Shown here: in pieces, positions 7,227 to 37,848 of the stretch
How the letters are laid out: every line of letters starts with the position of its first letter
Numbering within the stretch: the stretch's first letter is position 1
Assembly: GCA_016926155.1 (NCBI GenBank)
Contig: JAFGPC010000106.1
Span: 1-37,848, forward strand
Length of the DNA: 37,848 nt
Direction of reading: 5' to 3'
Source of the DNA: Sedimentisphaerales bacterium
Lineage (GTDB): Bacteria > Planctomycetota > Phycisphaerae > Sedimentisphaerales > Anaerohalosphaeraceae
Notes under the pieces: generated by a model
What the model saw: only the letters and a program-made list of their open reading frames with translations
Told to the model about the DNA's origin: nothing
The model's database searches: none
Program-made: the position numbers and the translations under genes

Positions 7227-7839
7227 GATCTTTCTCCTTTCTGAAATTCCGGTAACTGTTTACAACGAAGTCCCCTGCTTAAAATATCTTTGTCCACATG
7301 ATTGAAAGGGGATAATAGGATGGATGAGGGATTAGTTGCGAAAAGCCTGTTTCTGGAAATGCCCTTGTCTCCTTGGATATTCCTCATACTTCTCTGTTTC
7401 CCTGGTACCCTCTATTAAGTGGATATCTCATTAACTTCCGACTCACAGAATGTCAAGGAAAAAATATATATTTTATATATATAGGCAATATTGTACCAAT
7501 GCCTGTCTGTCCTTAATGTAAGGATACTCACAATTTATACGGATATTGCTTGCGTTTGATGTGCAATTTTACCAGCTAACCATGATGTGCAGAGATGATG
7601 GTCAGCAAGAAACGTTTCCTGAAAGAGGAGCCGGTACGACACCATAATTTTGTAATCATCAGACCTGTTGGAGTATCCGATTAGGGAAGTCTTTACTATT
7701 TTATCAATTGCGAATCATGACCAAACCGCTTGTTCGTCGAAATAAAAACGGTACAATAGCTCCTATTGGGACGCAAGTTGGGTCTGAGCATAGTCGATGC
7801 CAAGGGATAGACAGCGGCAAGTATTGATATGAGGTGCGA

Positions 7840-9948
7840 ATGAGTCTGGAAAGCTTCTTCACCCCCCGATCGGTTGCTATTGTTGGGGCATCACGGACCA
7901 AGGGCAAGGTTGGCTACGAAGTAGTCTCGGCCATGTTACGGGCCGGGTATGAGGGAAAACTGTTTGCCGTCAATCCTTCCACCGATGAAGTCCAGGGTCT
8001 CAAATGTTATCCGGACCTTAAGAGTATCGGTGAATCCCCGGAACTGGTTGTGGTGGTCGTAGCTGCCAAGCATGTCAAATCCGTGATCCAGGATTGTGCC
8101 GATCTTCGGGTCAAAGCGGCTATTATCATCTCTTCCGGCTTCAAGGAGGCCGGATCGCAGGGAGCCCAGCTCGAGCAGGAAATCGTTCGCATCGCCCGCT
8201 CGGCGGGAATGCGGATTATCGGACCCAACTGCATTGGGGTGATGTGTCCAACCAGCAAGCTCAATGCCAGTTTCGGCGGCCAATTGCCTAAGGCTGGGAA
8301 AGTGGGTTATTTTTCTCAATCCGGCTCGATTCTGGCCGCCATGGTGGATATGGCCGGAGCGACCGACATTGGATTCAGTAAGCTGGTCAGCATCGGAAAT
8401 AAGGCCGATGTCAATGAAATGGATGTGATGCGGGCCCTGGGAGAAGATGACAACACCAAAGTGATTGCCGGTTATCTGGAAACCATCAGCGACGGGGACG
8501 CTTTTATACGTCAGGCCGAGCGAATCAGTCGTATCAAGCCCATCCTTCTGCTTAAATCCGGAGTTACCGAGGCCGGCGCTCGTGCTGCAACATCCCATAC
8601 GGGTCGGCTGGCCGAATCGGAAAATGCTTATGAATGTGTGTTTGAGCGAGCCGGTGTAGTTCGCTGCCCTTCGATTAAAGCCCAGTTTGACTATGCCCGT
8701 GCCTTTGCCTACGATCCGGTACCCACCGGGCCTCGTGTAGCTGTAATTGCCAATGCCGGCGGTGCCGGAATCATGGCTACCGATGCCATCGAGAGAGAGG
8801 GTCTAAAACTGGCAAGCTTTACCGAGCAAACCCTTCAGAAACTCTGTAACGCCAAAGAACTGGCCGGAGTGGCTAATGTCGACAATCCCATTGATTTACT
8901 GGGGGATGCCCTGGCCAACCGTTATGAATTTGCCTTGCATGCAGCACTCGACGATCCGAACGTAGACACTGTATTGGTATTATTGAGCCCCCACGCCATG
9001 ACTGAGGTTCTGGAGACGGCCAAGGCGGTAGTCCGTGTTGCCAAGGAAAAGGATGAAAAACCCGTTCTGACCTGTTTTTTGGGGGCTTCAAGGATCTATG
9101 AGGCCAGCGAAATCTTGCGAAAGGGGCGAATTCCTCAATATGACTCTCCGGAAAGCGCTGTCGGCACCATCAAGGTAATGGCTCACTATTCCCAATGGAG
9201 GTCCCGGCCCAAGCGGGTTGTCAAGCTGTTCAGCGTCAATCGTCACAAGGCCGAGCGGATTATCGAGCGGCGACTGCGACAAAACGTACTGGAACTCGGA
9301 GAGGCTGAAACCAAAGAGATTCTGGAAGCGTATGGCTTTGTCACTCCGCGTGGTGAGATTGCTACAACTGTCGAGCAGGCCGTCAATATTGCCAACTATA
9401 TTGGTTATCCGGTCGTCTTGAAGATCTGGTCTCCCGATATCATTCACAAGACAGATATCGGTGGTGTAAAAACGGATTTGCGGACCGATCAGGAAGTGAT
9501 GGATGCTTTCGATTTGATGATGTACCGTATTCCGAAGAAGGCTCCTGACGCCGATATCATCGGTATCAGTGTCGAAGAGATGGTTGACAAGGGACGCGAG
9601 GTGATTCTGGGGATGAATCGTGATCCTCGATTTGGACCATTGATGATGTTTGGAATGGGCGGAAGATTGGTGGAAGTATTGGAAGATGTGGTGTTTTATC
9701 CCGCACCTCTGACGGCTGCCGAGGCCAAGGAAATGCTGGTTCGAACCAAAACATACGACCTTCTAAGCGGTGCCCGGGGTGAGGAAGGGGTGGATATCGA
9801 TGTGATCGCCGAGGGCCTCCAGCGGCTCAGCCAACTTGTGACCGAGTTTCCGCAAATCAAAGAAATCGATATTAATCCTTACGTCGTCGGACGGGAGGGA
9901 ACCACTCCCATCGCCGTTGACGCCATGATGACATTGGAAAAGGCATAA
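7840..9948 (+). CDS. acetyl-CoA synthetase (ADP-forming), fused alpha/beta (NDP-forming acyl-CoA synthetase family)
   Basis: About 703 aa. The N-terminal CoA-binding Rossmann motif is SVAIVGAS...GYEV. It has succinyl-CoA-synthetase-like ligase-CoA domains and a C-terminal ATP-grasp (VVLKIWSPDIIHKTDIGGVK). Likely ATG at 7840, with GAGG 5 nt upstream. The ORF track starts at GTG 7834. Confidence 0.8.
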   Translation: MSLESFFTPRSVAIVGASRTKGKVGYEVVSAMLRAGYEGKLFAVNPSTDEVQGLKCYPDLKSIGESPELVVVVVAAKHVKSVIQDCADLRVKAAIIISSGFKEAGSQGAQLEQEIVRIARSAGMRIIGPNCIGVMCPTSKLNASFGGQLPKAGKVGYFSQSGSILAAMVDMAGATDIGFSKLVSIGNKADVNEMDVMRALGEDDNTKVIAGYLETISDGDAFIRQAERISRIKPILLLKSGVTEAGARAATSHTGRLAESENAYECVFERAGVVRCPSIKAQFDYARAFAYDPVPTGPRVAVIANAGGAGIMATDAIEREGLKLASFTEQTLQKLCNAKELAGVANVDNPIDLLGDALANRYEFALHAALDDPNVDTVLVLLSPHAMTEVLETAKAVVRVAKEKDEKPVLTCFLGASRIYEASEILRKGRIPQYDSPESAVGTIKVMAHYSQWRSRPKRVVKLFSVNRHKAERIIERRLRQNVLELGEAETKEILEAYGFVTPRGEIATTVEQAVNIANYIGYPVVLKIWSPDIIHKTDIGGVKTDLRTDQEVMDAFDLMMYRIPKKAPDADIIGISVEEMVDKGREVILGMNRDPRFGPLMMFGMGGRLVEVLEDVVFYPAPLTAAEAKEMLVRTKTYDLLSGARGEEGVDIDVIAEGLQRLSQLVTEFPQIKEIDINPYVVGREGTTPIAVDAMMTLEKA

Positions 9949-10016
9949 AAAAAACCGATATGCTCCCGGCGGTAGAATGATTTTTCTTCTGCTGGTTGTT
10001 CATGGAGGGCACAGAT

Positions 10017-11888
10017 ATGCATGAATTTGATTGGAAAGACAAATATAAAGAGCTGATCGGTACGGCACCGGAAGCGATGAGGCGGATTAAGCCGGGAGAC
10101 AGTATCTTCATCGGTACCGGGTGCGGACAACCGCAGCATTTGGTCGATTCGCTGGTCAAACATGGCGGACATATCTACGATGCGCATGTGGTGCACTTGT
10201 TAACGATGGGCGCTGCACCGTATGCCCGGCAGGAGTTTCGCGAAAAATTCAAGATGAACACTTTTTTCGTTGCGGAAAACGTGCGTGATGCCCTGGAACA
10301 GGGCATTGGCGATTACACGCCGGTTTTTTTAAGCAATATCCCGCAACTGTTCGAAACCGGCCGGGTAACGATCGATGTGGCGATGATTACCGTTACGCCG
10401 CCGGATATCAATGGGCTCTGTAGCCTTGGCGTATCGGTGGACATTGTAAAATCAGCCGCCGCGAACGCCAAATTCGTCATTGCACAGGTTAATACCGGAA
10501 TGCCGCGAACCCTGGGGAATTGCTTTCTACATGTGAATTCTATTGATATGCTGGTGCCTTATGATGAGCCGATTATTATGGTTGAGCCGCCCACGACCAA
10601 TGACGTGCTTCGAAAAATCGGACAGAATCTGGCCCGGCTGGTCGAGGACGGCAGCACGATCGAGTGTGGCATTGGGAGAATTCCTCAGGCGATGGCTGAG
10701 TATCTCCATGATAAAAAGGAACTTGGCGTACATACCGAGATGTTCGGAGACTGGATCATTGAATTGATCGAATGCGGCGCGGTTACCTGTTCCAAAAAGA
10801 CAATCAACAACGGCAAGATCGTTGCCAGTTTTTGCATGGGTTCCCAGGCCTTGTATGACTACATTGATAATAATCCGTTGTTCGAATTCCATCCGACTGA
10901 GTATGTCAATGATCCGTTTATCATCGCCCAGCACGATAAAATGGTGGGCATCAATGTCGGTCTGGAGATCGATTTAACCGGTCAGGTTTGTGCCGATTCA
11001 CTGGGCTATCGTTTCTATAGCGGCATTGGCGGCCAGGTCGATTTTATTCGAGGCTGTGCGCGAAGCAGGGGAGGCAAACCCATCATTGCAATGCCTTCCA
11101 CGGCCAAAGGTGACACAATTAGCCGAATCGTGCCAAGGTTGACTGAAGGGGCGGGCGTGGTGACGACACGGGGAGATGTGCATTATGTCGTTACCGAATA
11201 CGGAATTGCCTACCTGCACGGAAAGAGCATTCGCGAGCGTGTACTGTCTTTGATTAACATTGCTCACCCCAAGTTCCGCAAGGAGTTAATCCAGGCTGCC
11301 AAGGCACAGCGTTATATCCAACCCGATCAGATCGAACTGGAATGGGATAAGGTCCACTACCCCGAGGAATTGGAACGATACGAAACACTGCGGGACGGTA
11401 CGGAAATTTTCTTTCGTCCCGTCAAGCCCACCGATGAAGCGGCCCTGTCGGAAATGCTGTATTCGCTTTCTCGTGAATCGGTGAAGAGGCGATACTTTAC
11501 GCACACCAAGACCTTTCCGCACAAGGATGTCCAGAAGCTGACCAATGTGGATTATGAACAGAACCTGGCGATTGTCGGAGTGGTTCCGGGAGCGGCGTAT
11601 GGAGAGGAAATCGTGGCGATTGCGCAATACTTCCTCGATCCAAAGACGCAGGTGGCCGAGGTGGCATTTATCGTGCAGGATGAATGGCAGGATAAGGGCA
11701 TGGGAAGCTACTTACTGGACTATATTACGGACATCGCCAAGAGCCGGGGTGTCAAACGGTTCTATGCCACAGTTTTGCCGATGAATCGGGCAATGCTGCA
11801 AATCTTCTACAACAGCGGTTACTCGGTCAATACGGAGTTTGACGGTGAAGCGTATTCGATCACATATGGCCTGGACAGAAAATCCTGA
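10017..11888 (+). CDS. bifunctional acetyl-CoA hydrolase/transferase family domain fused to C-terminal GNAT acetyltransferase domain
   Basis: N-terminal ~480 aa match the acetyl-CoA hydrolase/CoA-transferase family (Ach1/Cat1/ScpC-like): GDSIFIGTGCGQPQHL, GSQALYDYIDNNP, MPSTAKGDTISRIVP. C-terminal ~150 aa form a GNAT fold (VAFIVQDEWQDKGMGSYLLDYI...). Likely ATG at 10017, with GGAGGG 7 nt upstream. The track starts at TTG 9996. Confidence 0.8.
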   Translation: MHEFDWKDKYKELIGTAPEAMRRIKPGDSIFIGTGCGQPQHLVDSLVKHGGHIYDAHVVHLLTMGAAPYARQEFREKFKMNTFFVAENVRDALEQGIGDYTPVFLSNIPQLFETGRVTIDVAMITVTPPDINGLCSLGVSVDIVKSAAANAKFVIAQVNTGMPRTLGNCFLHVNSIDMLVPYDEPIIMVEPPTTNDVLRKIGQNLARLVEDGSTIECGIGRIPQAMAEYLHDKKELGVHTEMFGDWIIELIECGAVTCSKKTINNGKIVASFCMGSQALYDYIDNNPLFEFHPTEYVNDPFIIAQHDKMVGINVGLEIDLTGQVCADSLGYRFYSGIGGQVDFIRGCARSRGGKPIIAMPSTAKGDTISRIVPRLTEGAGVVTTRGDVHYVVTEYGIAYLHGKSIRERVLSLINIAHPKFRKELIQAAKAQRYIQPDQIELEWDKVHYPEELERYETLRDGTEIFFRPVKPTDEAALSEMLYSLSRESVKRRYFTHTKTFPHKDVQKLTNVDYEQNLAIVGVVPGAAYGEEIVAIAQYFLDPKTQVAEVAFIVQDEWQDKGMGSYLLDYITDIAKSRGVKRFYATVLPMNRAMLQIFYNSGYSVNTEFDGEAYSITYGLDRKS

Positions 11889-11994
11889 ACGATTTTTTTC
11901 TGGCGTTGCGCGGCTATTAACGATTGTCTGGTTACTCAATTTTTTGTTGATAGCTATGGCGGGATGCAATATGACAAATGAGAATAGGCAAAAA

Positions 11995-12771
11995 ATGAGC
12001 CGACCGACAAAAGGCAAATCAATTCGTGTGGCCATGTGTCAGATTTTCTGTCTCTCCGGCGATCGATCGGGTAATTTTATCCGCATTGAAAATGCCCTGC
12101 AGGATGCTGCCCGGGCCGGGGCGCAAATCGCCTGTTTTCCCGAAACATCGATTCTCGGCTGGGTTTATAGTGATGCCCATCAACGTGCATATCCTATACC
12201 CGGACAAGACTCCGATCGTCTTTGTGCCCTGGCGAAACAATATAAGCTCTATATATGTATTGGCCTGGCGGAGAAAAACGGTGTCAACCTGCACGATTCG
12301 GCCATTTTGATCGATCCGGCAGGAAACCTTCTACTCAAACATCAGAAAATGAATATTCTAACGGAGTTGATGAATCCCCCTTATACTCCGGGCGGCCAGG
12401 TTGCATCTGTCGATACCGAACTGGGACGAATCGGGCTGCTGATTTGTGCGGACACCTTTCGGACGGATGTACTGGACGCCATGGCCGAACAAAAACCCGA
12501 TCTGGTACTTGTACCCTATGGTTGGGCGGCCCCCGAAGAAAACTGGCCAGAGCATGGAAAAGAACTTCATTCTGTTGTACAATCAGCAGCTCGAAGAATC
12601 GGCGTCCCGGTCATCGGGGTAGATCTGGTTGGGCAGATTACCCGCGGACCGTGGCGGGATCGGGTATACGGGGGGCAAAGTATTATGATCGATGCATCGG
12701 GGTGCGTCCTGGCTGTGGCTGTGGATCGTGACCGCGATATTGTTGTTGCGGATGTGCCGATAAAAGATTAA
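11995..12771 (+). CDS. carbon-nitrogen hydrolase family amidase (nitrilase superfamily; N-carbamoylputrescine-amidase-like)
   Basis: IRVAMCQIF...ACFPETS places the catalytic Glu in context. LLICAD is the catalytic Cys motif. The start is ambiguous. ATG 11995 (MSRPTKGKSIRVAM) gives a typical cytoplasmic CN-hydrolase N-terminus. The longer track ORF (11839) overlaps the upstream gene and adds a hydrophobic, lipobox-like LIAMAGC segment. Confidence 0.7.
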   Translation: MSRPTKGKSIRVAMCQIFCLSGDRSGNFIRIENALQDAARAGAQIACFPETSILGWVYSDAHQRAYPIPGQDSDRLCALAKQYKLYICIGLAEKNGVNLHDSAILIDPAGNLLLKHQKMNILTELMNPPYTPGGQVASVDTELGRIGLLICADTFRTDVLDAMAEQKPDLVLVPYGWAAPEENWPEHGKELHSVVQSAARRIGVPVIGVDLVGQITRGPWRDRVYGGQSIMIDASGCVLAVAVDRDRDIVVADVPIKD

Positions 12772-12853
12772 TTTGGGCAAAGAATTTTGGGGTACATCGG
12801 AAACTTTCATTGTATTGTGTTTCCGACTTCAAGATGCAGGAGAAAGAGGAATT

Positions 12854-14116
12854 ATGAAGACAATTAATCGTCGAGCTTTTATAAAGACCGCTGTCGCAGG
12901 AGGAATCCTGGGAGCAGCAGGGCCGACCCGTTCGGCGTTCGGTTTGGGATACCCGATTGGAGATAAGAGTAAAGAGGATATCGGTTCGTCAATCGAGGCA
13001 CTTCTTCAGGGAAAAAGCGATGCCAAGATTAAGAGCATAGAAAGTTTCACGGATAAAGAGGCGAACAATCTTAGCTTTGTCCGTGTCGTGACCGAGGATG
13101 GGACCGAGGGATGGGGGCAGATGGCTCCGTTCAACGCCGATATTTCTGCAATCGTCCTGCATCGAAATGTTGCCCCGCTTGTGATTGGAAAAGATCCCTA
13201 TGATTTTGGAGGCATTTCCGATCTAGTCCGGGATCGCAATCTCAAATACCCCTGGTCTTATGTGTGCCGTGCGTTGTCCGGTCTGGATACGGCCTTGTGG
13301 GACCTCCGGGGAAAACAAGAAAACAAGAGTATTTGTGAACTGCTGGGTGGTACTCCTGGCGCAATACCTGTGTATGGTTCCAGTATGAGCCGCAAGATAA
13401 CAGCCGAGGAAGAAGCGCGTCGGATGGTGGCTTTGCGGGAAAGCCATGGATTTCGTGCATTCAAAATCCGTATTGGCTCCGAGGCCGGCCACAATCAGGA
13501 TGCCTGGCCCGGCCGGACCGAAGAGATTGTCCCGACCGTGCGAAAGGCACTGGGCGAGGATGTCGGCCTGATGGTCGACGCCAATAGTTGCTATACTATC
13601 GAAAAAGCCATTGAAGTGGGCAAGATGCTTGAAAAGAACAAGGTTATCCATTTTGAGGAACCTTGCCCCTATTGGGAGTTCGAATGGGCTTCCAAGGTCA
13701 ACAAGGCCCTGAAAGTGCCAGTCACCGGCGGTGAGCAGAATAACGATCCGGCCCAGTGGCAGCGGATCCTAAACGCCAAGGCCTATGATATCATTCAGCC
13801 GGACGTGTGTTATCTGGGGGGATTGACGCGAACATTACGTGTCGTGGCGATGGCACACAAAGCCAAGGTGCCCGTTGTGCCGCACTCTGCAAACTTATCA
13901 CTGGTGACCGTATTTGCCCTGCATCTGATGGGTGCAATCCCCAATGCCGGACCGCATGTGGAATATACGATTGAGAGCAACCCCTGGACGCGCGAGTTGT
14001 ATCAGCCGGTGCTCAAGGTACGGGACGGAAAAGTCGCCGTTCCCAACAATCCGGGCTGGGGCGTGGTCCTGAACAAGACCTGGCTGGAAAACGCCCAGCA
14101 CCAGATCACAGCATAG
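12854..14116 (+). CDS. Tat-signal enolase-superfamily enzyme (mandelate racemase / muconate lactonizing enzyme family dehydratase)
   Basis: Twin-arginine motif NRRAFIKTAVAGG directly after Met at 12854, with a GAAAGAGGA RBS. MR/MLE signatures present: KIRIG, MVDANSCYT, IHFEEP, TGGEQ, IIQPDVCYLGG. Confidence 0.8.
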   Translation: MKTINRRAFIKTAVAGGILGAAGPTRSAFGLGYPIGDKSKEDIGSSIEALLQGKSDAKIKSIESFTDKEANNLSFVRVVTEDGTEGWGQMAPFNADISAIVLHRNVAPLVIGKDPYDFGGISDLVRDRNLKYPWSYVCRALSGLDTALWDLRGKQENKSICELLGGTPGAIPVYGSSMSRKITAEEEARRMVALRESHGFRAFKIRIGSEAGHNQDAWPGRTEEIVPTVRKALGEDVGLMVDANSCYTIEKAIEVGKMLEKNKVIHFEEPCPYWEFEWASKVNKALKVPVTGGEQNNDPAQWQRILNAKAYDIIQPDVCYLGGLTRTLRVVAMAHKAKVPVVPHSANLSLVTVFALHLMGAIPNAGPHVEYTIESNPWTRELYQPVLKVRDGKVAVPNNPGWGVVLNKTWLENAQHQITA

Positions 14117-14136
14117 CCAAAAGTATTTGAAATCTG

Positions 14137-15267
14137 ATGACACAAAAAGCATTTATATATAGTCCTGAACTTGAGGCGTATCCGTATCCGCCCTCATGTC
14201 CTTTTAATACCTCGCGAGCTGGTAAGGCGCGTGCGATACTGACCTCAATGGGACTGTTGATCGGGGATGATAAAATAGAAGTTGCGCCTCCTCCCGCTAC
14301 AAGGGAGGTCTTGGAAACATTCCATACGCCGGAATATCTGGATGCTTTGGAACGATTGAATCGGGGCGAGTATGATTCGGAAATGCTTTACTTTGGCCTG
14401 GGTACGGGCGATTGTCCGGCCTTCAAAGGAGTATGGGACTATTCGGTCCTGGCCTGTGGGGCGTCCGTGCTGGGGGCCGAATGGATTGTGCAGGGAAAGG
14501 CTTCAGTAGCGTTTAATCCATCCGGCGGGCTGCATCACGCCTTTCCGGATCGAGCGGCGGGATTCTGTTATCTCAACGATGTCGTTCTTGGCTGCGAGAC
14601 GCTGGCCAAAGGAAACAAACGAGTCGTTTTTCTCGATATCGATGTGCATCATACGGACGGCGTACAGGCAGCCTTCTATGATCGAAACGATGTGATGACC
14701 ATCTCACTACATCAGGATGGCCGGACACTCTTTCCCGGTACCGGATTTGTAGAAGAAATCGGTGAGGGGGAAGGGAAAGGATATGCCATCAATATTCCTT
14801 TACCGATGGGCACGTATGATGAAGCCTATCTGCGGGCGGTTCGCCAGGTTGTGCTTCCCTTGATTCATGCGTTCGGGCCGGATGTCCTTGCTCTGGAGAT
14901 CGGGGCAGATACCCTATCCGGCGATCCACTGGCAAACCTGAGCCTGACCAACAACGTAATCGCCGATGTCATCGGCCTTCTGCGGGCCTTTGGAAAGCCG
15001 ATCCTTGCCACGGGTGGTGGGGGCTACCATGTCGATAATACGGCCCGGGCATGGGCTCTGGCTTGGACGGCCTTGTGCGGGGAAGATGCCGGCGCTGATG
15101 CGGCGGCTGGATTAGGCGGAGTGATGCTTGAAACGGCAGACTGGCATGGGGGATTGCGAGATCGCGTACTGGCTCCCAGCGAAGCCCAGAAATGCAGCGT
15201 CGATCAAATTCTGAATATCACACTGGACAGTGTTAAAAAGCTGGTTTTTCCCCACCATGGGCTGTAA
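14137..15267 (+). CDS. acuC: AcuC-type deacetylase (histone deacetylase / acetoin utilization protein family; arginase-deacetylase fold)
   Basis: 376 aa. FIYSP...PFN, GGLHHAFPDRAAGFCYLNDVV and LDIDVHHTDGVQAAFYDRNDVMTISLHQDGRTLFPGTGFVEEIGEGEGKGYAINIPL align closely with B. subtilis AcuC. Confidence 0.85.
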   Translation: MTQKAFIYSPELEAYPYPPSCPFNTSRAGKARAILTSMGLLIGDDKIEVAPPPATREVLETFHTPEYLDALERLNRGEYDSEMLYFGLGTGDCPAFKGVWDYSVLACGASVLGAEWIVQGKASVAFNPSGGLHHAFPDRAAGFCYLNDVVLGCETLAKGNKRVVFLDIDVHHTDGVQAAFYDRNDVMTISLHQDGRTLFPGTGFVEEIGEGEGKGYAINIPLPMGTYDEAYLRAVRQVVLPLIHAFGPDVLALEIGADTLSGDPLANLSLTNNVIADVIGLLRAFGKPILATGGGGYHVDNTARAWALAWTALCGEDAGADAAAGLGGVMLETADWHGGLRDRVLAPSEAQKCSVDQILNITLDSVKKLVFPHHGL

Positions 15268-16822: not shown

Positions 16823-18802
16823 TTATCCGCGGCCTGCGATGAGCTTCTCGACGACACTCGGATCGGCCAGCGTGGTGATATCGCCCAGGTTGCCTGTATC
16901 CTTCTCGGCAATCTTGCGCAAGATTCGACGCATGATCTTGCCCGAACGAGTCTTGGGCAGCGACGGAGCAAACTGAATCGCTTCCGGAGCGGCGATCGGG
17001 CCAATTTCCTTACGGACGTGCATGATCAATTCTTTCTTGAGAGCATCGCTTTCCTCGACGCCATCGACCAGAGTGACATAGGCATACAGACCCTGTCCCT
17101 TGATCTCGTGCGGGATCGGTGTGACAGCGGCCTCGGCGACCTTGGCATGGCTGACCAGGGCACTTTCCACCTCAGCGGTTCCGATACGGTGACCGGAGAC
17201 ATTGACTACATCGTCAATCCGACCCATCAGCCAATGATCGCCGTCTTCGTCGACCCGGCAACCGTCACCCGTGAAATACATGTTGTCGAACATCGTGAAA
17301 TACGTGTCGATAAAACGGTCATGATCGCCCCACATCGTACGCATCATACCGGGCCAGGGTTTGCGGATACACAGCTTGCCGCCTTCATTGACATTACATA
17401 CCGAAGCATCATCCCGCAGCACTATGGTGTCTACTCCGAAGAACTGCTTACAGGCGCTTCCGGGCTTAAGCGTATGGGCGCCCGGCAACGGAGTGACTAA
17501 GATCCCGCCGGTTTCGGTCTGCCACCATGTATCCACGATCGGGCATTTGCTGTGTCCGACCTTTTCATAGTACCATATCCAGGCTTCGGGATTGATTGGC
17601 TCGCCCACCGTGCCCAAAATCCGCAGGGAATCGAGCTTGTACTTGGTTACCCACTCGTCACCCAGACGCATCAGGGCGCGAATCGCCGTGGGAGCCGTAT
17701 AGAAAACGGTGACCTTGAACTTGTCGCAAATATGCCAGAAGCGTCCGGCATCCGGATAGGTCGGGACGCCTTCGAACATCAGACTTGTGGCGCCGTTGGC
17801 CAATGGGCCGTAAACGATATAGCTATGTCCTGTCACCCAGCCGATATCGGCAGTGCACCAGTAGATATCATCGTCGTGAATATTAAAAATATGCTTGTGC
17901 GACAGCGAGGTATGCATCAGGTAGCCGGCTGTGGTGTGGACCACGCCCTTGGGCTTTCCTGTCGAGCCGGAGGTGTACAGGATGAACAGCGGATCTTCGG
18001 CGTTCATATGCTCGGGTTCGCAGTCGGCGCTGGCCTTGGCCATCTCGTCATGATACCAGAAATCCCGACCGTCTATCATATCGCAGGGTTCAGTGTTGAC
18101 CTTCGTCACGATGACGCTTTCGATGGTCGGGCAATCGGCCAGGGCCTCGTCGGCGATCTTTTTGAGAAGGATGTGCTTGCCGGCCCGAAGAGACACGTTG
18201 GAGGTAATCAGCATCTTACAATCGGAATCGTTGACACGGCCCTTGATCGCGTCGGCGCTGAAACCGCCAAAAATGATCGAATGAATCGCTCCGATTCGAG
18301 TGCAGGCCATCATCACAATAGCCAGTTCGGGTACCATTGGCATATAAATAGCCACGCGGTCGCCCTTGCGGATGCCCTTGCCCTTGAGCACATTGGCAAA
18401 TTTGCAGACCTCTGTGTGCATTTCTTTATAGGTAAACTTCTTAACCGCATCCTCGGCCTCACCCTGCCAGAGGATGGCGACCTTGTTCTCAATAGGAGTG
18501 CCCAGATGACGATCCAGACAGTTGTACGAAACGTTCAGCTCACCATCGGCAAACCAGGTATGTTCGATCTTCCGGGCCTTGGTGTCCCAGGTATATTCCA
18601 GACTCTTGGTTGGTTCCTTGAACCAGGTCAGCGTCTTGGCCTGTTCCAGCCAGAAAGCATCCGGGTCGTTGATCGACTTTTCCCACATTTCCTTGTACTG
18701 CTGCTCGCTGTTAATCCAGGCATTCGACTGCACGTTGGTAGGCGGGGGAAACTTACGGCCTTCAACCATGAGCGATTGCATTCCTTTGTTTTGTTCTGCC
18801 AT
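16823..18802 (-). CDS. acs: acetyl-CoA synthetase (AMP-forming)
   Basis: 659 aa. Canonical Acs N-terminus (NSEQQYKEMWEKSINDPDAFW) and AMP-binding motif YTSGSTGKPKG. The conserved acetylatable Lys sits in the PKTRSGKIMRR context. GAGGTG lies 8 nt before the ATG. Confidence 0.92.
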   Translation of the reverse strand: MAEQNKGMQSLMVEGRKFPPPTNVQSNAWINSEQQYKEMWEKSINDPDAFWLEQAKTLTWFKEPTKSLEYTWDTKARKIEHTWFADGELNVSYNCLDRHLGTPIENKVAILWQGEAEDAVKKFTYKEMHTEVCKFANVLKGKGIRKGDRVAIYMPMVPELAIVMMACTRIGAIHSIIFGGFSADAIKGRVNDSDCKMLITSNVSLRAGKHILLKKIADEALADCPTIESVIVTKVNTEPCDMIDGRDFWYHDEMAKASADCEPEHMNAEDPLFILYTSGSTGKPKGVVHTTAGYLMHTSLSHKHIFNIHDDDIYWCTADIGWVTGHSYIVYGPLANGATSLMFEGVPTYPDAGRFWHICDKFKVTVFYTAPTAIRALMRLGDEWVTKYKLDSLRILGTVGEPINPEAWIWYYEKVGHSKCPIVDTWWQTETGGILVTPLPGAHTLKPGSACKQFFGVDTIVLRDDASVCNVNEGGKLCIRKPWPGMMRTMWGDHDRFIDTYFTMFDNMYFTGDGCRVDEDGDHWLMGRIDDVVNVSGHRIGTAEVESALVSHAKVAEAAVTPIPHEIKGQGLYAYVTLVDGVEESDALKKELIMHVRKEIGPIAAPEAIQFAPSLPKTRSGKIMRRILRKIAEKDTGNLGDITTLADPSVVEKLIAGRG

Positions 18803-32171: not shown

Positions 32172-32200
32172 CCGGTAATTTCATTCTAATTGATTTCAAG

Positions 32201-32235
32201 CCGGGCGTTTTCTTTGTGAAACGCCCGGTTTTTTC
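32201..32235 (+). terminator. Rho-independent terminator after the LamG protein gene
   Basis: CCGGGCGTTT-tctttgtg-AAACGCCCGG followed by TTTTTTC. It lies 30 nt after the stop. Confidence 0.7.
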
Positions 32236-32382: not shown

Positions 32383-32415
32383 TTGACAATGATCTGCACA
32401 CTGCTACAGTGTGCA
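32383..32415 (+). promoter_or_regulatory. putative pspA promoter (TTGACA-N16-TACAGT) with an overlapping perfect 9-3-9 palindromic operator
   Basis: TTGACA at 32383-32388 and TACAGT at 32405-32410. The palindrome TGCACACTG-cta-CAGTGTGCA spans 32395-32415 and covers the spacer and the -10. Confidence 0.45.
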
Positions 32416-32557
32416 TGGATATTCCGGATGAGCTTCGTTCCGCTTGCGTGGAGCGGATAACAACGGAGCCATTGGACGATCAGACGGGTCCGGTTTCTCG
32501 TCGTCGTCGGTGATCCCGGCCGGGTGGTTGGGAGCCTAGCGGAAAGGAGTATCGATT

Positions 32558-33241
32558 ATGGGTCTTTTCAGACGTCTTCACAGAATCACCATGGGTCGGA
32601 TCGAGGCCTTTTTAGACCGCGCCGAAGATCCGGAAATCATCTTCCCCATCCTGTTGGAGGAGATGGAAAAACAGCTTCGGGCGGCAACCGAAGCCGAAGC
32701 CAAGGCCGCCGCATCGCTCAAGCAGGCACAGCGTGAGTTAAAAGGTCACCAGACCAAGGTGGAACGATTTAGTCAGGGGGCTGCGCTGGCCTTGAAAAAG
32801 AACGACGAACAGACGGCTCGGATGTCTATCGAAGCGCAGATCGATGCCGAGAAAATGGCTTCAGTCGCCCAGCAGAATGTCGACATGGCAACCGATTCTC
32901 TCGATCATGCTGCTGCCGCTCGTAAACGGATTCAACAGCAGCTCGATGAATTACAAGCCAAGAAAGATGAACTGCTCACCAGAGCGCGTGTGGCTAAAAC
33001 GCAACAAAAGATACAACGGACGGTCAGCGGCTCGGCCGGCAGCACTGACAGTATTCTTGATGCCGTAGCTCGCCTGGAAACCGGTGTCGAAGAAGCCGAA
33101 GCCCAGCTTGAGATTCAATCGCACCTGGCGGGCGAAGGTTCCGGCAACGGCACGCTGGAACGCAAGCTCAGTGAGCTGGTACACGACAGCGAAATCGAGA
33201 AGCGGATGGAACAGCTTCGTAAACAAATCTCGCAAACATAA
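32558..33241 (+). CDS. pspA: PspA/IM30 family protein (phage-shock protein A / Vipp1-like), paralog 1
   Basis: 227 aa, all predicted coiled coil. The N-terminus MGLFRRL...AFLDRAEDPEIIFPILLEEMEKQL matches the PspA MGIFSRF...LLEKAEDPQKL...IQEMED pattern. Confidence 0.85.
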   Translation: MGLFRRLHRITMGRIEAFLDRAEDPEIIFPILLEEMEKQLRAATEAEAKAAASLKQAQRELKGHQTKVERFSQGAALALKKNDEQTARMSIEAQIDAEKMASVAQQNVDMATDSLDHAAAARKRIQQQLDELQAKKDELLTRARVAKTQQKIQRTVSGSAGSTDSILDAVARLETGVEEAEAQLEIQSHLAGEGSGNGTLERKLSELVHDSEIEKRMEQLRKQISQT

Positions 33242-33264
33242 CAGGATTCCGGTATACTTTGTGT

Positions 33265-33293
33265 CCGGTCGGGCTCAGGAGGGGCTCGGCCGG
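33265..33293 (+). other. intercistronic RNA hairpin between the two pspA paralogs (12-bp stem incl. 3 G-U, loop AGGAG), weak U-tract
   Basis: CCGGTCGGGCTC-aggag-GGGCTCGGCCGG followed by ATTTCTT. It could act as a partial terminator or attenuator. Confidence 0.3.
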
Positions 33294-33338
33294 ATTTCTT
33301 AAATAGTCCGGTTATGTGCCGGGACAGGAGTGATAGTC

Positions 33339-34007
33339 ATGTCAATATTAGATCGAATTCGACGGATCGCCAAAGCCAACATCAGCCGACTACTCGATAT
33401 GGCAGAACCTGCCGAGCAGGAACTACAAGCCAAGATCAAAGAACTGGAAGAGGCGATTCTGGAAGGCCGCGAAAGCGCGGCAACCTACGGAGCGACGTTT
33501 CGACGTTTGGAAACCGAACTGGATCAGCTCAAACAAAGCCAGACCGAATGCACAAAGCGGGCGGAAACAGCCCTTAAAGCGGGCGATGAGAAGGCCGCCC
33601 GCAAAGCCCTGTCGGAAAAGGTCAAACTCGCCGAAAGAATTGCCCAGATGCAGCCTGGGATTGAACGGGGCCGAAAGACCTATGATATGCTGCGGGATAA
33701 TATCATCAAGCTGCAGGAACAGCTTAAGGCGGCCAAACTCAAGATGGCGGATCTGGAAGCACGCAAGCGAACCGCAGAAGCACAGCTTGCCTTTGACAAG
33801 CATCTGGACCGGGCTACCTCGCTGAATCCGGAGGGCGTGGCCTTCGACCGACTCGAAGAGCAGGTCCTGCAGGATGAAGCACAGGTCCAGATCAATCAGG
33901 AGCTTCGTGGAGACAGCCTGACCGAGGTCGAGCTGGCTCAGCGGTCCAGAGAGCTTCAGATCGAAGCGGAGCTGGAAGAAATGAAAGAGCGGCTGGAACA
34001 GGACTAA
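33339..34007 (+). CDS. PspA/IM30 family protein, paralog 2
   Basis: MSILDRIRRIAKANISRLLDMAEPAEQELQAKIKELEE matches the PspA N-terminal helix pattern. The rest is coiled coil. ATG at 33339, with GGAG 10 nt upstream. The track starts at GTG 33330. Confidence 0.85.
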   Translation: MSILDRIRRIAKANISRLLDMAEPAEQELQAKIKELEEAILEGRESAATYGATFRRLETELDQLKQSQTECTKRAETALKAGDEKAARKALSEKVKLAERIAQMQPGIERGRKTYDMLRDNIIKLQEQLKAAKLKMADLEARKRTAEAQLAFDKHLDRATSLNPEGVAFDRLEEQVLQDEAQVQINQELRGDSLTEVELAQRSRELQIEAELEEMKERLEQD

Positions 34008-34021
34008 GAGAATAAGGAGGC

Positions 34022-34699
34022 GTGGCTATGGAATTTATCCAGGCGGCGTTTTCAGGGCCCAATCTTTTATGTACGATTTTTTTGCTGCTGATGTTCCTAT
34101 ACTGGATCATGGTCATCCTCGGCGCACTGGATGTTGAATTCCTTAATGTAGATGCCGGTGCGGATACAGATGTGGATCTGGATGTGGATGCGGATGCGGA
34201 TGCCGATACAGACGTTGATATAGGCGTAGGGGGCTTTCTGGATGGTTTTCTTGCCTTCTTTTATATCGGTACAATCCCGGTCATGGTTTTACTGAGCGTG
34301 CTGGCTTTATGCATGTGGTCTATTTCGATCCTTGCAAACTGGTATCTGAATCCAGGCGGTTCCGTGCTTGTGGGACTGCCCATTGCGATGGCAAATGTGA
34401 TTGTCAGTCTGATGATCTGTAAAATCGTTTGCATGCCTTTAGCGAGGTTTTTTTCCATGTTCAGAAAAGATTATAATGCTCCTCGCGCCGTCATCGGCAG
34501 AATCGGCAAGGTGATCACAACCGAAGTATCCGCCGGTCGAATTGGGCAGGTTGAGCTAACCACCCACGGCGCTCCGATCGTATTGAATGTCGTTACCGAT
34601 GGTTCGCATGTCTTCCATAAGGGGGACGAAGCCGTCATCGTAAATAAAGATGAAAAGAAAGGTGTCTATACGATAGCACCGGTAAATCTGGAGGATTGA
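34022..34699 (+). CDS. NfeD-like / YqiJ-like inner-membrane protein (flotillin partner) with C-terminal OB-fold
   Basis: 225 aa. N-terminal TM helix, the acidic insert VDAGADTDVDLDVDADADADTDVDIG, more TM helices and a C-terminal beta-rich segment (GRIGKVITTEVSAGRIGQVELTTHGAPIVLNV...KGDEAVIV) like NfeD/YuaF OB-folds. Its stop overlaps the flotillin start by 4 nt. Confidence 0.7.
   Translation: MAMEFIQAAFSGPNLLCTIFLLLMFLYWIMVILGALDVEFLNVDAGADTDVDLDVDADADADTDVDIGVGGFLDGFLAFFYIGTIPVMVLLSVLALCMWSISILANWYLNPGGSVLVGLPIAMANVIVSLMICKIVCMPLARFFSMFRKDYNAPRAVIGRIGKVITTEVSAGRIGQVELTTHGAPIVLNVVTDGSHVFHKGDEAVIVNKDEKKGVYTIAPVNLED
34148..34222 (+). repeat. in-frame (GAT-GYG)n hexanucleotide microsatellite-like tract encoding a (D-V/A)n acidic loop
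   Basis: gat gtg gat ctg gat gtg gat gcg gat gcg gat gcc gat aca gac gtt gat. Confidence 0.5.
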
Positions 34700-36696
34700 T
34701 TATGTTGGCAGCAGGTAATCCATTAATGACCGTGATTTATGTCGCCGGCGGATTTCTCATTCTGGTGTTTGTGGGAATGTTATTCCTGCTTCAATTCTAC
34801 CGTAAGGTAGCCCAGGGTCAGGCCTTAATCCGCAATGGTGTAGGGGGTACCAAAGTCAGCTTCTCGGGGATGTATGTAATTCCGATTCTGCACCGGGTTG
34901 AATTTATGGACATCTCGGTCAAGCGAGTTGAGATCGACAGGACCGGGGCACAGGGCCTGATCTGTCAGGACAACCTCCGGGCGGATATCAAGGTGGCCTT
35001 CTTTGTTCGGGTTAATAACACGGCCGAAGATGTCAAGAAGGTTGCCCAGGCCCTGGGATGCGTACGGGCATCCGATGAGAGGGCATTATATGAGCTATTT
35101 GATGCCAAGTTTTCCGAGGCATTGAAAACTATCGGAAAGCGGTTTGACTTTGCCGAATTGTACGTCGCTCGTGTGCGATTCAAGGAAGAGATCCTCCAGA
35201 TCATCGGAACGGACCTGAACGGTTATGTGCTGGAAGATGCCGCGATTGACTATCTCGAGCAGACCGACAAGAGCCTGCTGAATCCGAACAATATTCTGGA
35301 TGCCGAGGGCATCAAGAAGATTACGGTATTGACGGCCGAACAGTATGAGCTGGCCAACGCCCGGGAGCGAGAGAAAGACAAGACGATCACGAAGCAGAAC
35401 GTCGAGGCCCAGGAAGCGATTCTGGTATTGAATCGTCAGCTTGCCGAGGCCGAGGCCAAGCAGAAACGCGAGATTGCCTCCGTGCAGGCGCGCGAAGAGG
35501 CTGAGACAAAAAAGATCCAGGCCCAGGAAAAAGAAAAGTCCGAAAAGGCCCGCATCGGTGCCGATGAAGAAATCGCCGTCGCCGAAGAAAATAAGTTGCG
35601 TCAGATCATCGTCGCTGCCAAGAACAAGGATCGCACTGATGCGGTCGAGACCGAGCGGGTTGAGCGGGATCGCGGACTGGAAGCGACCGAACGCGAGCGC
35701 CTGGTGACGATCGCCCAGGTGGAGAAGGACAAGGCGGTCGAGGGCCAGAAGAAGGAATTACAGTCGGCAATCCGCGAACGGGTGATCGTCGAGAAATCAG
35801 TGGTTACGGAAGAAGAACGGATCAAGGATACAAGGGCCTTTGCAGGGGCAGACCGACAGAAACGGGTGGCGATTACCGACGCCGAAGAGAAGGCCGAACA
35901 GGCCCTCGTTAAGGATATCAAGGCGGCGGAAGCATCGAAGAAGGCCGCCGAGCACTATGCCGACCAGCAGGTGATCGAGGCCCAGGCGAACTTGGATGCC
36001 GCAGGTCGAAATGCCGATGCCAAGAGGACTTTGGCCGAGGCGGATGTAAAGGTGCAGGCCGTTGGGGGCTTTGCCGAAGCCGAGGTTACGGAAGCCAAGG
36101 CCGTCGCCCTGGAGAAACAGGGTACCGCCGAAGCGAATGTGATGGGGATGAAATATCATGCCGAGGCCGATGGAATCCGCGACAAGGCCGAGGCCATGAA
36201 GATCTTTGATGCGGTCGGCAAGGAACACGAGGAATTCAAGCTGCAGTTGAACAAGGATCTGGAGATTGAGCTGGCCGAGGTCAATGTGCAGAAGGACATT
36301 GCCGCCGAGCAGGCCAAGATTGTCGGCGAAGCGCTCAAGAGCGCCAAGATTGATATCGTCGGTGGCGACAACAACTTCTTCAACCGGCTGGTCAATTCTA
36401 TCACGACCGGCAAGCAGGTGGACCGGATGATCGATAACAGCCAGGCCTTAACTGGTCTGAAAGAGACACTGCTGGGCGATGATCCGGAGATGAACAAGCA
36501 GAAAATCCGTGAGTTCATCTCTCAATTCGGCCTGGACAGCGAGGATATTAAGAACCTCTCGGTCAGTGCACTGGTATTGAAACTGCTGGCAGATGCCGAT
36601 GAGCAGCAGAAGGGAACATTGAACCGGATCCTGGCCGCCGTGAAGGAAATGGGGATCGGCGATATGCCCGCTAAAAAATTGCTGGGGAATAAATAG
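34696..36696 (+). CDS. flotillin family protein (SPFH/band-7 domain + long EA-rich coiled coil; FloT/YqiK-like)
   Basis: 666 aa. N-terminal TM segment, SPFH core (VSFSGMYVIPILHRVEFMDISVKRVEID...GLICQDNLRADIKVAFFVRV) and ~300 aa of E/A/K-rich flotillin coiled coil. Confidence 0.85.
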   Translation: MIMLAAGNPLMTVIYVAGGFLILVFVGMLFLLQFYRKVAQGQALIRNGVGGTKVSFSGMYVIPILHRVEFMDISVKRVEIDRTGAQGLICQDNLRADIKVAFFVRVNNTAEDVKKVAQALGCVRASDERALYELFDAKFSEALKTIGKRFDFAELYVARVRFKEEILQIIGTDLNGYVLEDAAIDYLEQTDKSLLNPNNILDAEGIKKITVLTAEQYELANAREREKDKTITKQNVEAQEAILVLNRQLAEAEAKQKREIASVQAREEAETKKIQAQEKEKSEKARIGADEEIAVAEENKLRQIIVAAKNKDRTDAVETERVERDRGLEATERERLVTIAQVEKDKAVEGQKKELQSAIRERVIVEKSVVTEEERIKDTRAFAGADRQKRVAITDAEEKAEQALVKDIKAAEASKKAAEHYADQQVIEAQANLDAAGRNADAKRTLAEADVKVQAVGGFAEAEVTEAKAVALEKQGTAEANVMGMKYHAEADGIRDKAEAMKIFDAVGKEHEEFKLQLNKDLEIELAEVNVQKDIAAEQAKIVGEALKSAKIDIVGGDNNFFNRLVNSITTGKQVDRMIDNSQALTGLKETLLGDDPEMNKQKIREFISQFGLDSEDIKNLSVSALVLKLLADADEQQKGTLNRILAAVKEMGIGDMPAKKLLGNK

Positions 36697-36817
36697 ATGT
36701 AAAATTGCACGGACGGACCGGAACGGGCTTGACGCAGGATAATATCGAAAGCTTTGTTCCCGCTCGTCCGGTTTGCCATACCGACGATCGGTGATCGTGA
36801 AAGAGAGAGTGGTGACC

Positions 36818-37848
36818 ATGACCGAAAACGATCAGGATCAGGTCCAAGAGCAATCCGCCGACCAGATACAATTGGAAGGCGGCACCTATGAGGTGATTCG
36901 TCATCGACTGAGCAACCATGGTCGGGACTTGCGCCAGCGTCTGGACAAGCTTAACACCGCCCGAAAAGAGGTCTTCGGGGCGATCGAGAGCAAGCTGATC
37001 GCCAGCGAACGGATCAGCACACAGAACAATTGCGTGCCGCGCGACATGGTGCCCGTTGGAGATTCTTTTATCTTTGGCTACAATGTGTTTGTGGGATTGC
37101 GCACCGAGACGGTCGTTGCCGATGTATTCGCCGTCTATCGGTTCCAGGAGGGCAGCTTTGTCGAGAGTGGGCTGGAACTTATCACGGACGAGCAGTTCGA
37201 AGCCGACTTCAAAAATCTCTACAAGTATTACCGGCATACGGTCTTTTCCAAATTTGCCGTCATTGGACATCATCTGTTCATGGTCTTTCAGGTGGGTAAG
37301 GATGTCACGGATGTCAAAACCTTCAAGTGGCTGATCCGTGAAGGCAAACTGCAATACCTGGACAACCGCAGCGATCACGAATTCGTTTACCCGCCGCAGC
37401 ATGAGTTCGAATGGATTCGCACAACACAGGACATGCATCGCAGCGGTCTCAATCCGCATATCTCGATCGAAGACCGGATTTTTGTCGAGACGGTCGGAGG
37501 CGACCTGACGATTAAAATTGAGGACAATACCGCCAGCGGCGAGGGCATCTATTCCGAACCGGTGGATGATCCGGACCAGACGCTGAACGATGCGGAGATT
37601 TATTATGCGATCATCGGCAATGTGATTGCCCTGAAGATCCGCCCGTATCAGGAGCCCCACTTTCGATACATTCTCTACAGCGAAAAGACCCAGCGAGCCG
37701 TCCGGATCGATTCGGTTCGGGATGCGTGCGTGCTGCTGCCGGAAGATCACGGCCTGGTCTTTCCCAAGGGATATTTCCTGCAAACTGGCGATCTGAAACA
37801 GTTTGACACCGACATGCAGGATATGGTCTTTGAAAAAAGGATCAGTTC
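36818..37848 (+). CDS. hypothetical protein, 3'-truncated by the window end (>=343 codons, no stop); fifth gene of the PspA-flotillin operon
   Basis: Hand translation of the + frame from ATG 36818 (AAAGAGAGAG upstream) to the window end finds no stop: MTENDQDQVQEQSADQIQLEGGTYEVIRHRLSNHGRDLRQRL...VFEKRIS. Codon usage matches the neighbouring genes (GAC/CTG/ATC-rich). It is not in the supplied ORF track, which seems to omit ORFs without an in-window stop. No family recognised. Confidence 0.6.
   Translation, partial: MTENDQDQVQEQSADQIQLEGGTYEVIRHRLSNHGRDLRQRLDKLNTARKEVFGAIESKLIASERISTQNNCVPRDMVPVGDSFIFGYNVFVGLRTETVVADVFAVYRFQEGSFVESGLELITDEQFEADFKNLYKYYRHTVFSKFAVIGHHLFMVFQVGKDVTDVKTFKWLIREGKLQYLDNRSDHEFVYPPQHEFEWIRTTQDMHRSGLNPHISIEDRIFVETVGGDLTIKIEDNTASGEGIYSEPVDDPDQTLNDAEIYYAIIGNVIALKIRPYQEPHFRYILYSEKTQRAVRIDSVRDACVLLPEDHGLVFPKGYFLQTGDLKQFDTDMQDMVFEKRIS

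Follow-up and report, generated by a model that had tools for sequence, protein, structure and literature searches.

This analysis concerns a group of co-oriented genes at the end of a 37,848-nucleotide (nt) stretch of contig JAFGPC010000106.1 from a Sedimentisphaerales bacterium (Phycisphaerae, Planctomycetota), the whole of which is called the window below. In order, the group encodes two proteins of the PspA/IM30 family (PspA-1 and PspA-2), a YqiJ-like membrane protein, a YqiK-type flotillin and, as a fifth gene inside which the window ends, the N-terminal part of what is probably a giant AAA+ ATPase. Judging from relatives, in which a third PspA gene (PspA-3) follows, the unit appears to comprise six genes with three PspA paralogs, the last of them lying beyond the window end. 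The best explanation of the group as a whole, to which we give a probability of roughly 0.55, is that it is an operon for the maintenance or repair of the inner membrane, combining a flotillin platform, an ATPase and the PspA proteins. An earlier, sequence-only reading of the same DNA had described five genes with two PspA paralogs, a count that the relatives raise to six and three, and had proposed a role in membrane maintenance or remodelling, which is still the best reading of the unit.

The five frames occupy the + strand from 32558 to the window end in the open reading frame (ORF) survey, with intergenic gaps of 97 nt (PspA-1/PspA-2), 14 nt (PspA-2/YqiJ-like) and 121 nt (flotillin/ATPase), all exactly as the sequence-only reading had placed them. 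Its 4-nt overlap between the YqiJ-like and flotillin genes holds only if the flotillin starts at the TTG at 34696; because the homologs are 664 aa long, the start may be the ATG at 34702 instead, which leaves a 2-nt gap. In the closest relative, a Sedimentisphaerales metagenome-assembled genome (GCA_016930745.1, locus L001), the flotillin is 96% identical and the N-terminus of the gene 5 product 93% identical to that of the window, and a third PspA gene lies 27 nt after the ATPase gene. The six-gene order PspA–PspA–YqiJ–flotillin–ATPase–PspA is present in L001, L002, L088, L089, L090, L091 and L094 (L003 and L004 are copies of the L002 sequence), i.e., at no fewer than seven distinct loci, with 11–52 nt between the ATPase and PspA-3 genes in relatives and with unrelated flanking genes throughout. 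Because the same gene order recurs with unrelated flanks, the adjacency is conserved and not fortuitous, and a chance juxtaposition, which the sequence-only reading had named as a way in which it could be wrong, is ruled out. Given the unrelated flanks at all loci, the operon seems to move, or to be rearranged, as a block, and it looks co-transcribed as one conserved unit.

The ATPase belongs to a large family, whose sequences fall into 669 clusters when grouped at 50% identity and into more than 5,000 when grouped at 90%; species-representative genomes yielded at least 585 matches. From this family, 80 loci were annotated by iterated profile searches, and the 62 species-representative loci with at least 6 kb of upstream sequence were counted. 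A flotillin gene lies directly upstream of the ATPase gene in 59 of the 62, and the triad YqiJ–flotillin–ATPase is found in 54, distributed over Planctomycetota, Bacteroidota, Verrucomicrobiota, Desulfobacterota and Clostridia, whereas a PspA gene lies upstream in only 17, all of them from Bacteroidota. These counts show that the evolutionarily stable core is the triad and that PspA is a lineage-specific addition. PspA has joined the core in two lineages, the Bacteroidota and some of the Phycisphaerae, whose PspA clades are unrelated and whose accessory genes differ. In the Bacteroidota layout (16 loci), a cHTH-peptidase gene on the opposite strand is followed by a gene for a CesT/Tir-like protein of ~131 aa (a cluster so called by its position and a published description, not by a hidden Markov model), PspA, YqiJ, flotillin, variable inserts and the ATPase. 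The flotillin–ATPase interval of Bacteroidota holds 0.6–1.6 kb of variable small genes (L038 8345–10013, L018 8489–9959, L022 6833–8240); these are small ORFs of transmembrane (TM) or lipoprotein-like character that differ from one genus to another.

PspA-1 and PspA-2 match the PspA_IM30 profile PF04012 with 83.1 bits (E 2.9e-23) and 90.2 bits (E 2e-25), respectively, against a gathering cutoff of 33.9 bits, and both matches span positions 1–217 of the 220 in the profile; the third paralog of L001 reaches 63.9 bits. Both window proteins stay below the NCBIfam equivalog TIGR02977 for E. coli-type PspA (98 and 89 bits against 243), below NF007974 (61 and 50 bits against a cutoff of 336) and below the LiaH model NF045984 (30 and 36 bits against a cutoff of 380). 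As judged from these scores, they are members of the PspA/IM30 family, i.e., proteins of the ESCRT-III fold, and neither E. coli PspA nor LiaH is an ortholog of theirs. With 24% identity to each other they are indeed the tandem, diverged paralogs that had been recognised at the outset. The PspA proteins of Phycisphaerae form three orthologous groups that are 24–36% identical to one another, with PspA-1 and PspA-2 in separate groups, and these clades are separate from the PspA of Bacteroidota.

The product of the third gene has an acidic, D-rich loop and a C-terminal soluble β domain. The YqiJ_N model (PF21001) narrowly misses it (22.8 bits against a cutoff of 23) and matches 8 of the 22 members of its family, and the classical NfeD model of Pfam gives no match. 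A profile of the 22 members aligns with E. coli YqiJ over 175 columns, i.e., over the full length, with a probability of 97% and E 1.2e-10. On this profile evidence the protein is a distant YqiJ (NfeD-like) protein, as the sequence-only reading had it; YqiJ and YuaF are NfeD homologs and the partners of SPFH2 flotillins (PMC2636767).

The fourth gene product is 31% identical to YqiK of E. coli K-12 over 445 aa (BLASTP, E 6e-45), and hhalign pairs the two over 399 columns, from residue ~10, with a probability of 100% (E 7e-42). It has an N-terminal membrane anchor, an SPFH region and a long coiled coil, and its homologs are named “flotillin family protein” or “YqiK” in the source databases. Neither Band_7 (PF01145) nor Flot (PF15975) of Pfam matches it even at E ≤ 10, and there is no match in NCBIfam or among PDB sequences. 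Band_7 matches just 3 of 26 diverse family members (best E 3e-13); a profile of 27 close homologs has no PDB match, and one of 26 diverse homologs finds in the PDB only the coiled coil of QmcA (E 0.003). An AlphaFold2 model from a shallow alignment had a mean predicted local distance difference test score (pLDDT) of 54 and a predicted template modelling score (pTM) of 0.19, with the SPFH region below 50, and was discarded. Despite the Pfam misses, the protein is by sequence clearly homologous to the YqiK-type flotillins, and the original flotillin call was right. The profile searches that had been proposed as a check give a mixed answer: PspA_IM30 is confirmed, whereas Band_7 and Flot miss gene 4 and YqiJ_N falls just under its cutoff. 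Because the Pfam models miss gene 4 while its homology to YqiK is strong, such a check would wrongly reject the flotillin.

The fifth gene, which had been thought to match no family, is a member of a widespread AAA+ family: its frame matches PF12458 (DUF3686) with 443 bits and E 1.2e-132. Over all of its 343 residues the fragment is 93% identical to a 1,794-aa protein of L001, in which DUF3686 covers residues 43–481, DUF7902 residues 603–684 and AAA/AAA_5 residues 1282–1407. By this similarity, gene 5 is predicted to be the start of an AAA+ ATPase of ~1,790 aa with DUF3686, DUF7902, coiled coils and a MoxR-like module. Pfam detects no MIT, protease, DNA-binding, nuclease or VWA domain and no TM segment in the L001 protein, and sequence matches in the PDB are limited to the surroundings of Walker A (p97, found by phmmer, NVL and RuvB). 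For the AAA+ module, the model used was that of P0391, a 1,162-aa fragment homolog that is 63% identical to the last 665 residues of the L001 protein (98% covered); the AlphaFold2 model, from a 40-sequence alignment, has pLDDT 80.6 and pTM 0.63. It comprises, in order, ~230 residues of long coiled-coil helices, a small β domain, an all-helical domain, an AAA+ α/β core with lid and a C-terminal coiled coil. In Foldseek searches with the AAA+ module, NorQ/CbbQ gave the best target-normalised TM-scores (0.55–0.61), and the model has a β-hairpin between helix 3 and the sensor-1 strand (E758–769). Such a pre-sensor-1 hairpin marks a superclade of AAA+ proteins and is missing from the members of the classical clade. 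The features found are those of the MoxR/dynein-type AAA+ proteins (AAA_5) and not those of the Vps4/classical AAA clade; as modelled, the motor is MoxR/dynein-like, closest to MoxR, dynein and midasin and not to Vps4/Cdc48, a placement that agrees with the name given by the Joint Genome Institute (JGI).

The ATPase looks catalytically competent, as its family shows no variation, among 26–40 diverse members, in the Walker A motif PPGYGKTT, the Walker B motif DDIQH, the sensor-1 Asn or an Arg that follows helix 4. A self-comparison of the DUF3686 profile for propeller-like repeats gave no significant signal (best off-diagonal E 0.22). The same AAA+ module occurs with TPR or ankyrin-repeat N-termini in place of DUF3686 (P0432, P0438 and P0466, some of them partial), which suggests that TPR, ankyrin and DUF3686 N-termini are exchangeable heads that bind substrates or partners.

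On the 5′ side, a GC-rich, terminator-like hairpin with 13-bp arms (−22.8 kcal/mol, z = −4.0; none of 200 shuffles as stable) marks the left boundary of the unit (the coordinates of all features are given in Table 1). The homology between the window and L001 starts right after it (at ~32255 in the window and ~790 in L001), and the genes further 5′ differ, a secreted LamG/PKD protein being encoded in the window and an ABC-2 permease in L001. The terminator of the sequence-only reading is borne out by the hairpin and its T-run, although a consensus terminator scan did not report it. The promoter and operator that it had assigned to the unit likewise correspond to a promoter-like site with 10 of 12 matches and to a perfect dyad, conserved in only part of the relatives: the TTGAC −35 box and TAnnnT at the right spacing are kept in L001, L002 and L088 but not in L089 or L090, and the dyad is present in L001, with changes on both arms (CATACTG-CTA-CAGTATG), and absent from L002. 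The dyad may be an operator for a repressor.

Between the promoter candidate and PspA-1 lies a leader that is conserved in blocks among loci with only ~75% protein identity, with the invariant blocks GACGAU...CGUCGUCGGU and GGRAGCC. RNAalifold on eight loci predicts 27 pairs, 11 of them with compensatory changes; 97.1% of the cells are paired, against 30–57% in controls in which the partner columns were slid, and none of 500 shuffles reached the covariation score. The L091 leader carries a ~45-nt insertion, which sits precisely in a loop. When a covariance model of the eight sequences, with L071 left out, was searched against 0.85 Mb of loci, the single new instance lay 5′ of the first PspA gene of L071 (E 7e-6); in these loci the leader occurs only upstream of PspA-led operons and in none of the PspA-less ones. 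No Rfam family matches the leader: the only hits, RsaF and SSRC38, reach 22–23 bits where the gathering scores are 60 and 80, and they fall on the terminator region 5′ of it. A metagenome scan with the leader pattern found only two JGI contigs that were already part of the analysis. With nine sequences, the leader is a good candidate for a structured RNA and falls short of proof. It offers a small, independent lead on how envelope-stress genes are controlled in a phylum that has received little study. In L071 (147–520), the leader, a Shine-Dalgarno sequence and an ATG are followed by a frame of ~80 codons without similarity to PspA and then by a PspA-2-type gene; the short frame looks like a remnant left after the loss of PspA-1.

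A membrane-maintenance operon of this composition could work as follows. YqiJ and the flotillin would build an SPFH assembly anchored on the cytoplasmic side of the inner membrane. The giant ATPase would dock on this assembly via its N-terminal DUF3686 and coiled-coil parts and use the energy of ATP to put together, reshape or clear away the assembly or its clients. The three PspA paralogs, made from the same transcript, would be recruited by the flotillin platform, by analogy with the recruitment of PspA by YdjI, and would polymerise on damaged or strained membrane, with the ATPase providing polymer turnover. Expression is probably regulated by stress, through the σ70-type promoter, the dyad operator and the structured 5′ leader, and the overall role would be the maintenance or repair of the inner membrane.

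Clusters of this kind are already known as a computational prediction. The sequence-only reading, which mentioned PspA–flotillin neighbourhoods from comparative surveys, knew of no characterised system with the full combination. Ravi et al. 2024 (PMC11237479, mSystems), in a purely computational study, described operons with PspA, YqiJ/YuaF, Band-7/flotillin and a “beta-propeller + coiled-coil + AAA+ ATPase”, described abbreviated versions without PspA as well, and predicted that membranes are remodelled in these contexts in a chaperone-like or ATP-dependent way. The operons of Ravi et al. (example Dokdonia donghaensis ANH61663.1) share with the window unit the YqiJ protein, the flotillin with TM, SPFH and coiled-coil regions, the giant ATPase family, their order and a PspA gene at the 5′ end, and the Bacteroidota architecture found here matches the Dokdonia example exactly. 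The window unit differs from them: it is without the CesT/Tir-like gene, it has three PspA genes in place of one (two upstream and one downstream of the ATPase gene), and it has a structured RNA leader in place of the divergent cHTH-peptidase gene. The interval from the upstream terminator to PspA-1 contains no ORF, and the ~131-aa CesT/Tir-like cluster is found in no Phycisphaerae locus. New here are the three-PspA architecture of Phycisphaerae without CesT/Tir, the candidate leader RNA, the counts showing that the ATPase is constantly accompanied by the flotillin pair and not by PspA, and the placement of the motor by MoxR/dynein.

Among characterised systems, pspA-ydjGHI of B. subtilis likewise encodes an ESCRT-III-fold PspA together with an SPFH protein and small integral membrane partners, and is the only experimental precedent for the logic of PspA and SPFH proteins: the SPFH protein YdjI is required to bring PspA to the membrane, and it behaves unlike the classical flotillins FloA and FloT (PMC8581546). 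In contrast to the window unit, it has one PspA and no AAA+ ATPase. The E. coli yqiJK and B. subtilis yuaF-floT pairs share the order and tight coupling of genes 3 and 4, which are homologous to YqiJ and YqiK; however, no PspA gene or giant ATPase gene adjoins yqiJK in E. coli, and the window flotillin is ~110 aa longer and escapes the Band_7 and Flot models. MoxR proteins (CbbQ, NorQ and RavA) have ~250–500 aa and usually a partner with a VWA domain, whereas the ATPase described here has ~1,250 aa of DUF3686, DUF7902, coiled coil and helical domains before the AAA+ module, no detected VWA domain and DD in Walker B. In the HflK/C-FtsH complex, an SPFH cage surrounds an AAA+ machine, FtsH being an AAA protease of the classical clade with TM helices. 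The window unit shares with it the concept of an SPFH assembly that organises a membrane-proximal AAA+ enzyme; unlike in FtsH, no protease domain or TM segment is detected by Pfam in the DUF3686 ATPase.

The most serious of the alternatives, which we nevertheless regard as doubtful, is a bacterial analog of ESCRT-III/Vps4, in which the three PspA proteins co-polymerise, the giant ATPase is the motor for disassembly and recycling, and the flotillin and YqiJ only target the polymer. In the ESCRT-III/Vps4 systems (archaeal CdvB/CdvC; eukaryotic Snf7-Vps2-Vps24/Vps4) there are also several diverged ESCRT-III-fold paralogs and one AAA+ ATPase, and by analogy such an arrangement would allow ATP-driven polymer turnover here. 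The three paralogs are deeply diverged and hold fixed positions, PspA-3 following the ATPase gene so closely, PspA has been linked independently to the same ATPase family in Bacteroidota and Phycisphaerae, and the parallel of PspA–AAA+ contexts to Snf7/Vps4 was drawn explicitly by Ravi et al. (PMC11237479). Against it, the ATPase is without a linked PspA gene in 45 of the 62 loci, no MIT domain is detected by Pfam, and the similarity to p97 found by phmmer is confined to the Walker A region. The hairpin in the ATPase model is, moreover, a feature that the classical clade lacks, and the ATPase is MoxR/dynein-like, about four times larger than Vps4 and linked primarily to flotillin. At most, the unit can be called analogous to these systems; it is not one of them.

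A fuller version, equally tentative, is a machine assembled in part of the Phycisphaerae, in which three specialised ESCRT-III-fold PspA proteins act on a flotillin/NfeD platform and a MoxR-like motor turns the polymers over, under the control of a leader RNA that would sense membrane or metabolic signals. If true, this would be a functional analog of ESCRT-III/Vps4, self-contained and ATP-driven, built from a non-homologous ATPase. According to a 2025 review, a Vps4-like ATPase appears to be absent in bacteria (PMC7619361), and whether a dedicated ATPase assembles or disassembles bacterial PspA/Vipp1 polymers is an open question, for which the triad supplies a concrete candidate motor. The ATPase has the flotillin pair as its conserved partner, with PspA as an add-on, and the motor is MoxR/dynein-like, which makes the interaction of flotillin and ATPase the first target; isolates of Bacteroidota or Planctomycetia that carry the triad would be tractable models.

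It is rather improbable that the PspA paralogs are negative regulators of the ATPase, after the manner of PspA and PspF, such that under membrane stress PspA would be drawn off to the flotillin platform and the ATPase thereby set free. The genes are tightly co-encoded, and the ATPase module groups structurally with the AAA+ ATPases that have a pre-sensor-1 hairpin. This hairpin is also carried by the NtrC/PspF-type ATPases. PspA is, in addition, an established binding partner and inhibitor of an AAA+ protein, PspF (PMC7619361). However, the giant ATPase is without σ54-activator features or a DNA-binding domain, and three paralogs exceed the needs of a simple inhibitor.

Envelope defence, which the sequence-only reading had offered as its own alternative, finds little to recommend it and is very unlikely. 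In this explanation the unit would act against phages, or in abortive infection, by remodelling the membrane. In its favour, defence islands often contain large multi-domain NTPases beside membrane proteins, genes for a transposase and an integrase lie a few kb upstream of the unit in L088, and TPR or ankyrin N-termini are found on variants of the ATPase module. However, PADLOC-DB 2.0 gives no family match to the unit, only matches to the JetC/LmuB coiled coil and the mad8 P-loop at E 0.001–0.008; the neighbours are housekeeping genes and genes for secreted LamG proteins, the triad spans phyla and is not among defence genes in the loci inspected, and the unit contains no nuclease, protease or toxin effector.

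It is scarcely credible that the fifth gene truly encodes an ATPase for DNA repair and stands beside membrane genes without functional meaning. The databases name the family “DNA repair ATPase”, the Pfam description of DUF3686 and the NCBI product text read “ATPase involved in DNA repair”, and RuvB is among the sequence and fold matches. However, the name carries no cited experiment, the resemblance to RuvB is one that AAA+ proteins share in general, neither a DNA-binding nor a nuclease domain is detected, and the ATPase gene directly follows that of the flotillin in nearly all of the loci counted, in five phyla.

Several points weigh against the membrane-maintenance operon itself. Closely related loci of Phycisphaerae (L006, L011, L033, L068 and L092) have no PspA gene at all, which shows that the core can do without it. 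Since the window stops inside gene 5, the ATPase module and PspA-3 are read from a relative that is 93–96% identical. Walker B is DD and not DE, and hydrolysis may therefore be slow or regulatory. The roles of the candidate promoter, operator and leader are drawn from patterns in the sequence. Finally, a literature search for “DUF3686” found no paper, and no paper was found that joins “MoxR” with “flotillin” or “NfeD”.

Table 1. Positions of the genes and putative regulatory elements of the unit (window coordinates, except for the leaders of relatives, which are given in the coordinates of each locus)
Feature	Position	Strand	Remarks
Terminator-like hairpin of upstream LamG/PKD gene	32198..32231	+	Arms AAGCCGGGCGTTT / AAACGCCCGGTTT, then T-run
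σ70-like promoter candidate	32383..32410	+	TTGACA-16 nt-TG-TACAGT; 10/12 matches
Dyad overlapping −10 element, putative operator	32395..32415	.	Perfect 9-bp TGCACACTG-CTA-CAGTGTGCA, 100% complementary
Candidate structured 5′ leader RNA, three helices	32412..32557	+	~145 nt, promoter to PspA-1 start; 3′ end just before Shine-Dalgarno AAGGAG
PspA-1	32558..33241	+	227 aa; PF04012 match
PspA-2	33339..34007	+	222 aa; PF04012 match
YqiJ-like (NfeD-like) polytopic membrane protein	34022..34699	+	225 aa; family profile against E. coli YqiJ
YqiK-type flotillin (SPFH2)	34696..36696	+	664–666 aa; homology to E. coli YqiK
ATPase, N-terminal part	36818..37848	+	343 codons, open at window end; PF12458 (DUF3686)
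Shadow frame	36671..37783	-	370-aa ORF opposite the strongly supported DUF3686 coding frame of gene 5
Leader in L001	968-1116		
Leader in L002	7787-7932		
Leader in L088	6621-6773		
Leader in L089	5983-6144		
Leader in L090	5892-6051		
Leader in L091	6674-6867		
Leader in L094	6518-6666		
Leader in L071	147-280		

The spacer between the flotillin and ATPase genes (36697–36817) has no conserved structure across eight loci, and its fold in the window has z = −0.43 against shuffles.

Some variation around the unit was seen in individual relatives. An extra Band_7/SPFH gene of ~190 aa lies between the YqiJ gene and the gene for the large flotillin in L089 (8340–8903), L090 (8332–8904) and L013 (7011–7562), which suggests a variant with two SPFH proteins. 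At one locus, L091 (4200–6478), genes for a MASE3/HisKA_3 histidine kinase and a GerE-type response regulator lie directly 5′ in the same orientation, a pair that we take to resemble LiaS/LiaR. The PspA-less Phycisphaerae locus L092 (7851–17384) has a gene for a 164-aa protein of no named family before the YqiJ gene and one for an FRG-domain protein at the position of PspA-3.

The other genes of the window are housekeeping genes, e.g. those for AlaRS, aconitase and acetyl-CoA synthetases, together with genes for secreted LamG proteins. A cluster at 7834–15267 on the + strand encodes an ADP-forming acetyl-CoA synthetase-like protein, a fusion of acetyl-CoA hydrolase/transferase with GNAT, an enolase-superfamily enzyme and a histone-deacetylase-type deacetylase, and an AMP-forming acetyl-CoA synthetase is encoded beside it on the opposite strand (16823–18802, −). 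This acetyl-CoA gene cluster looks like ordinary metabolism, perhaps with acylation control.

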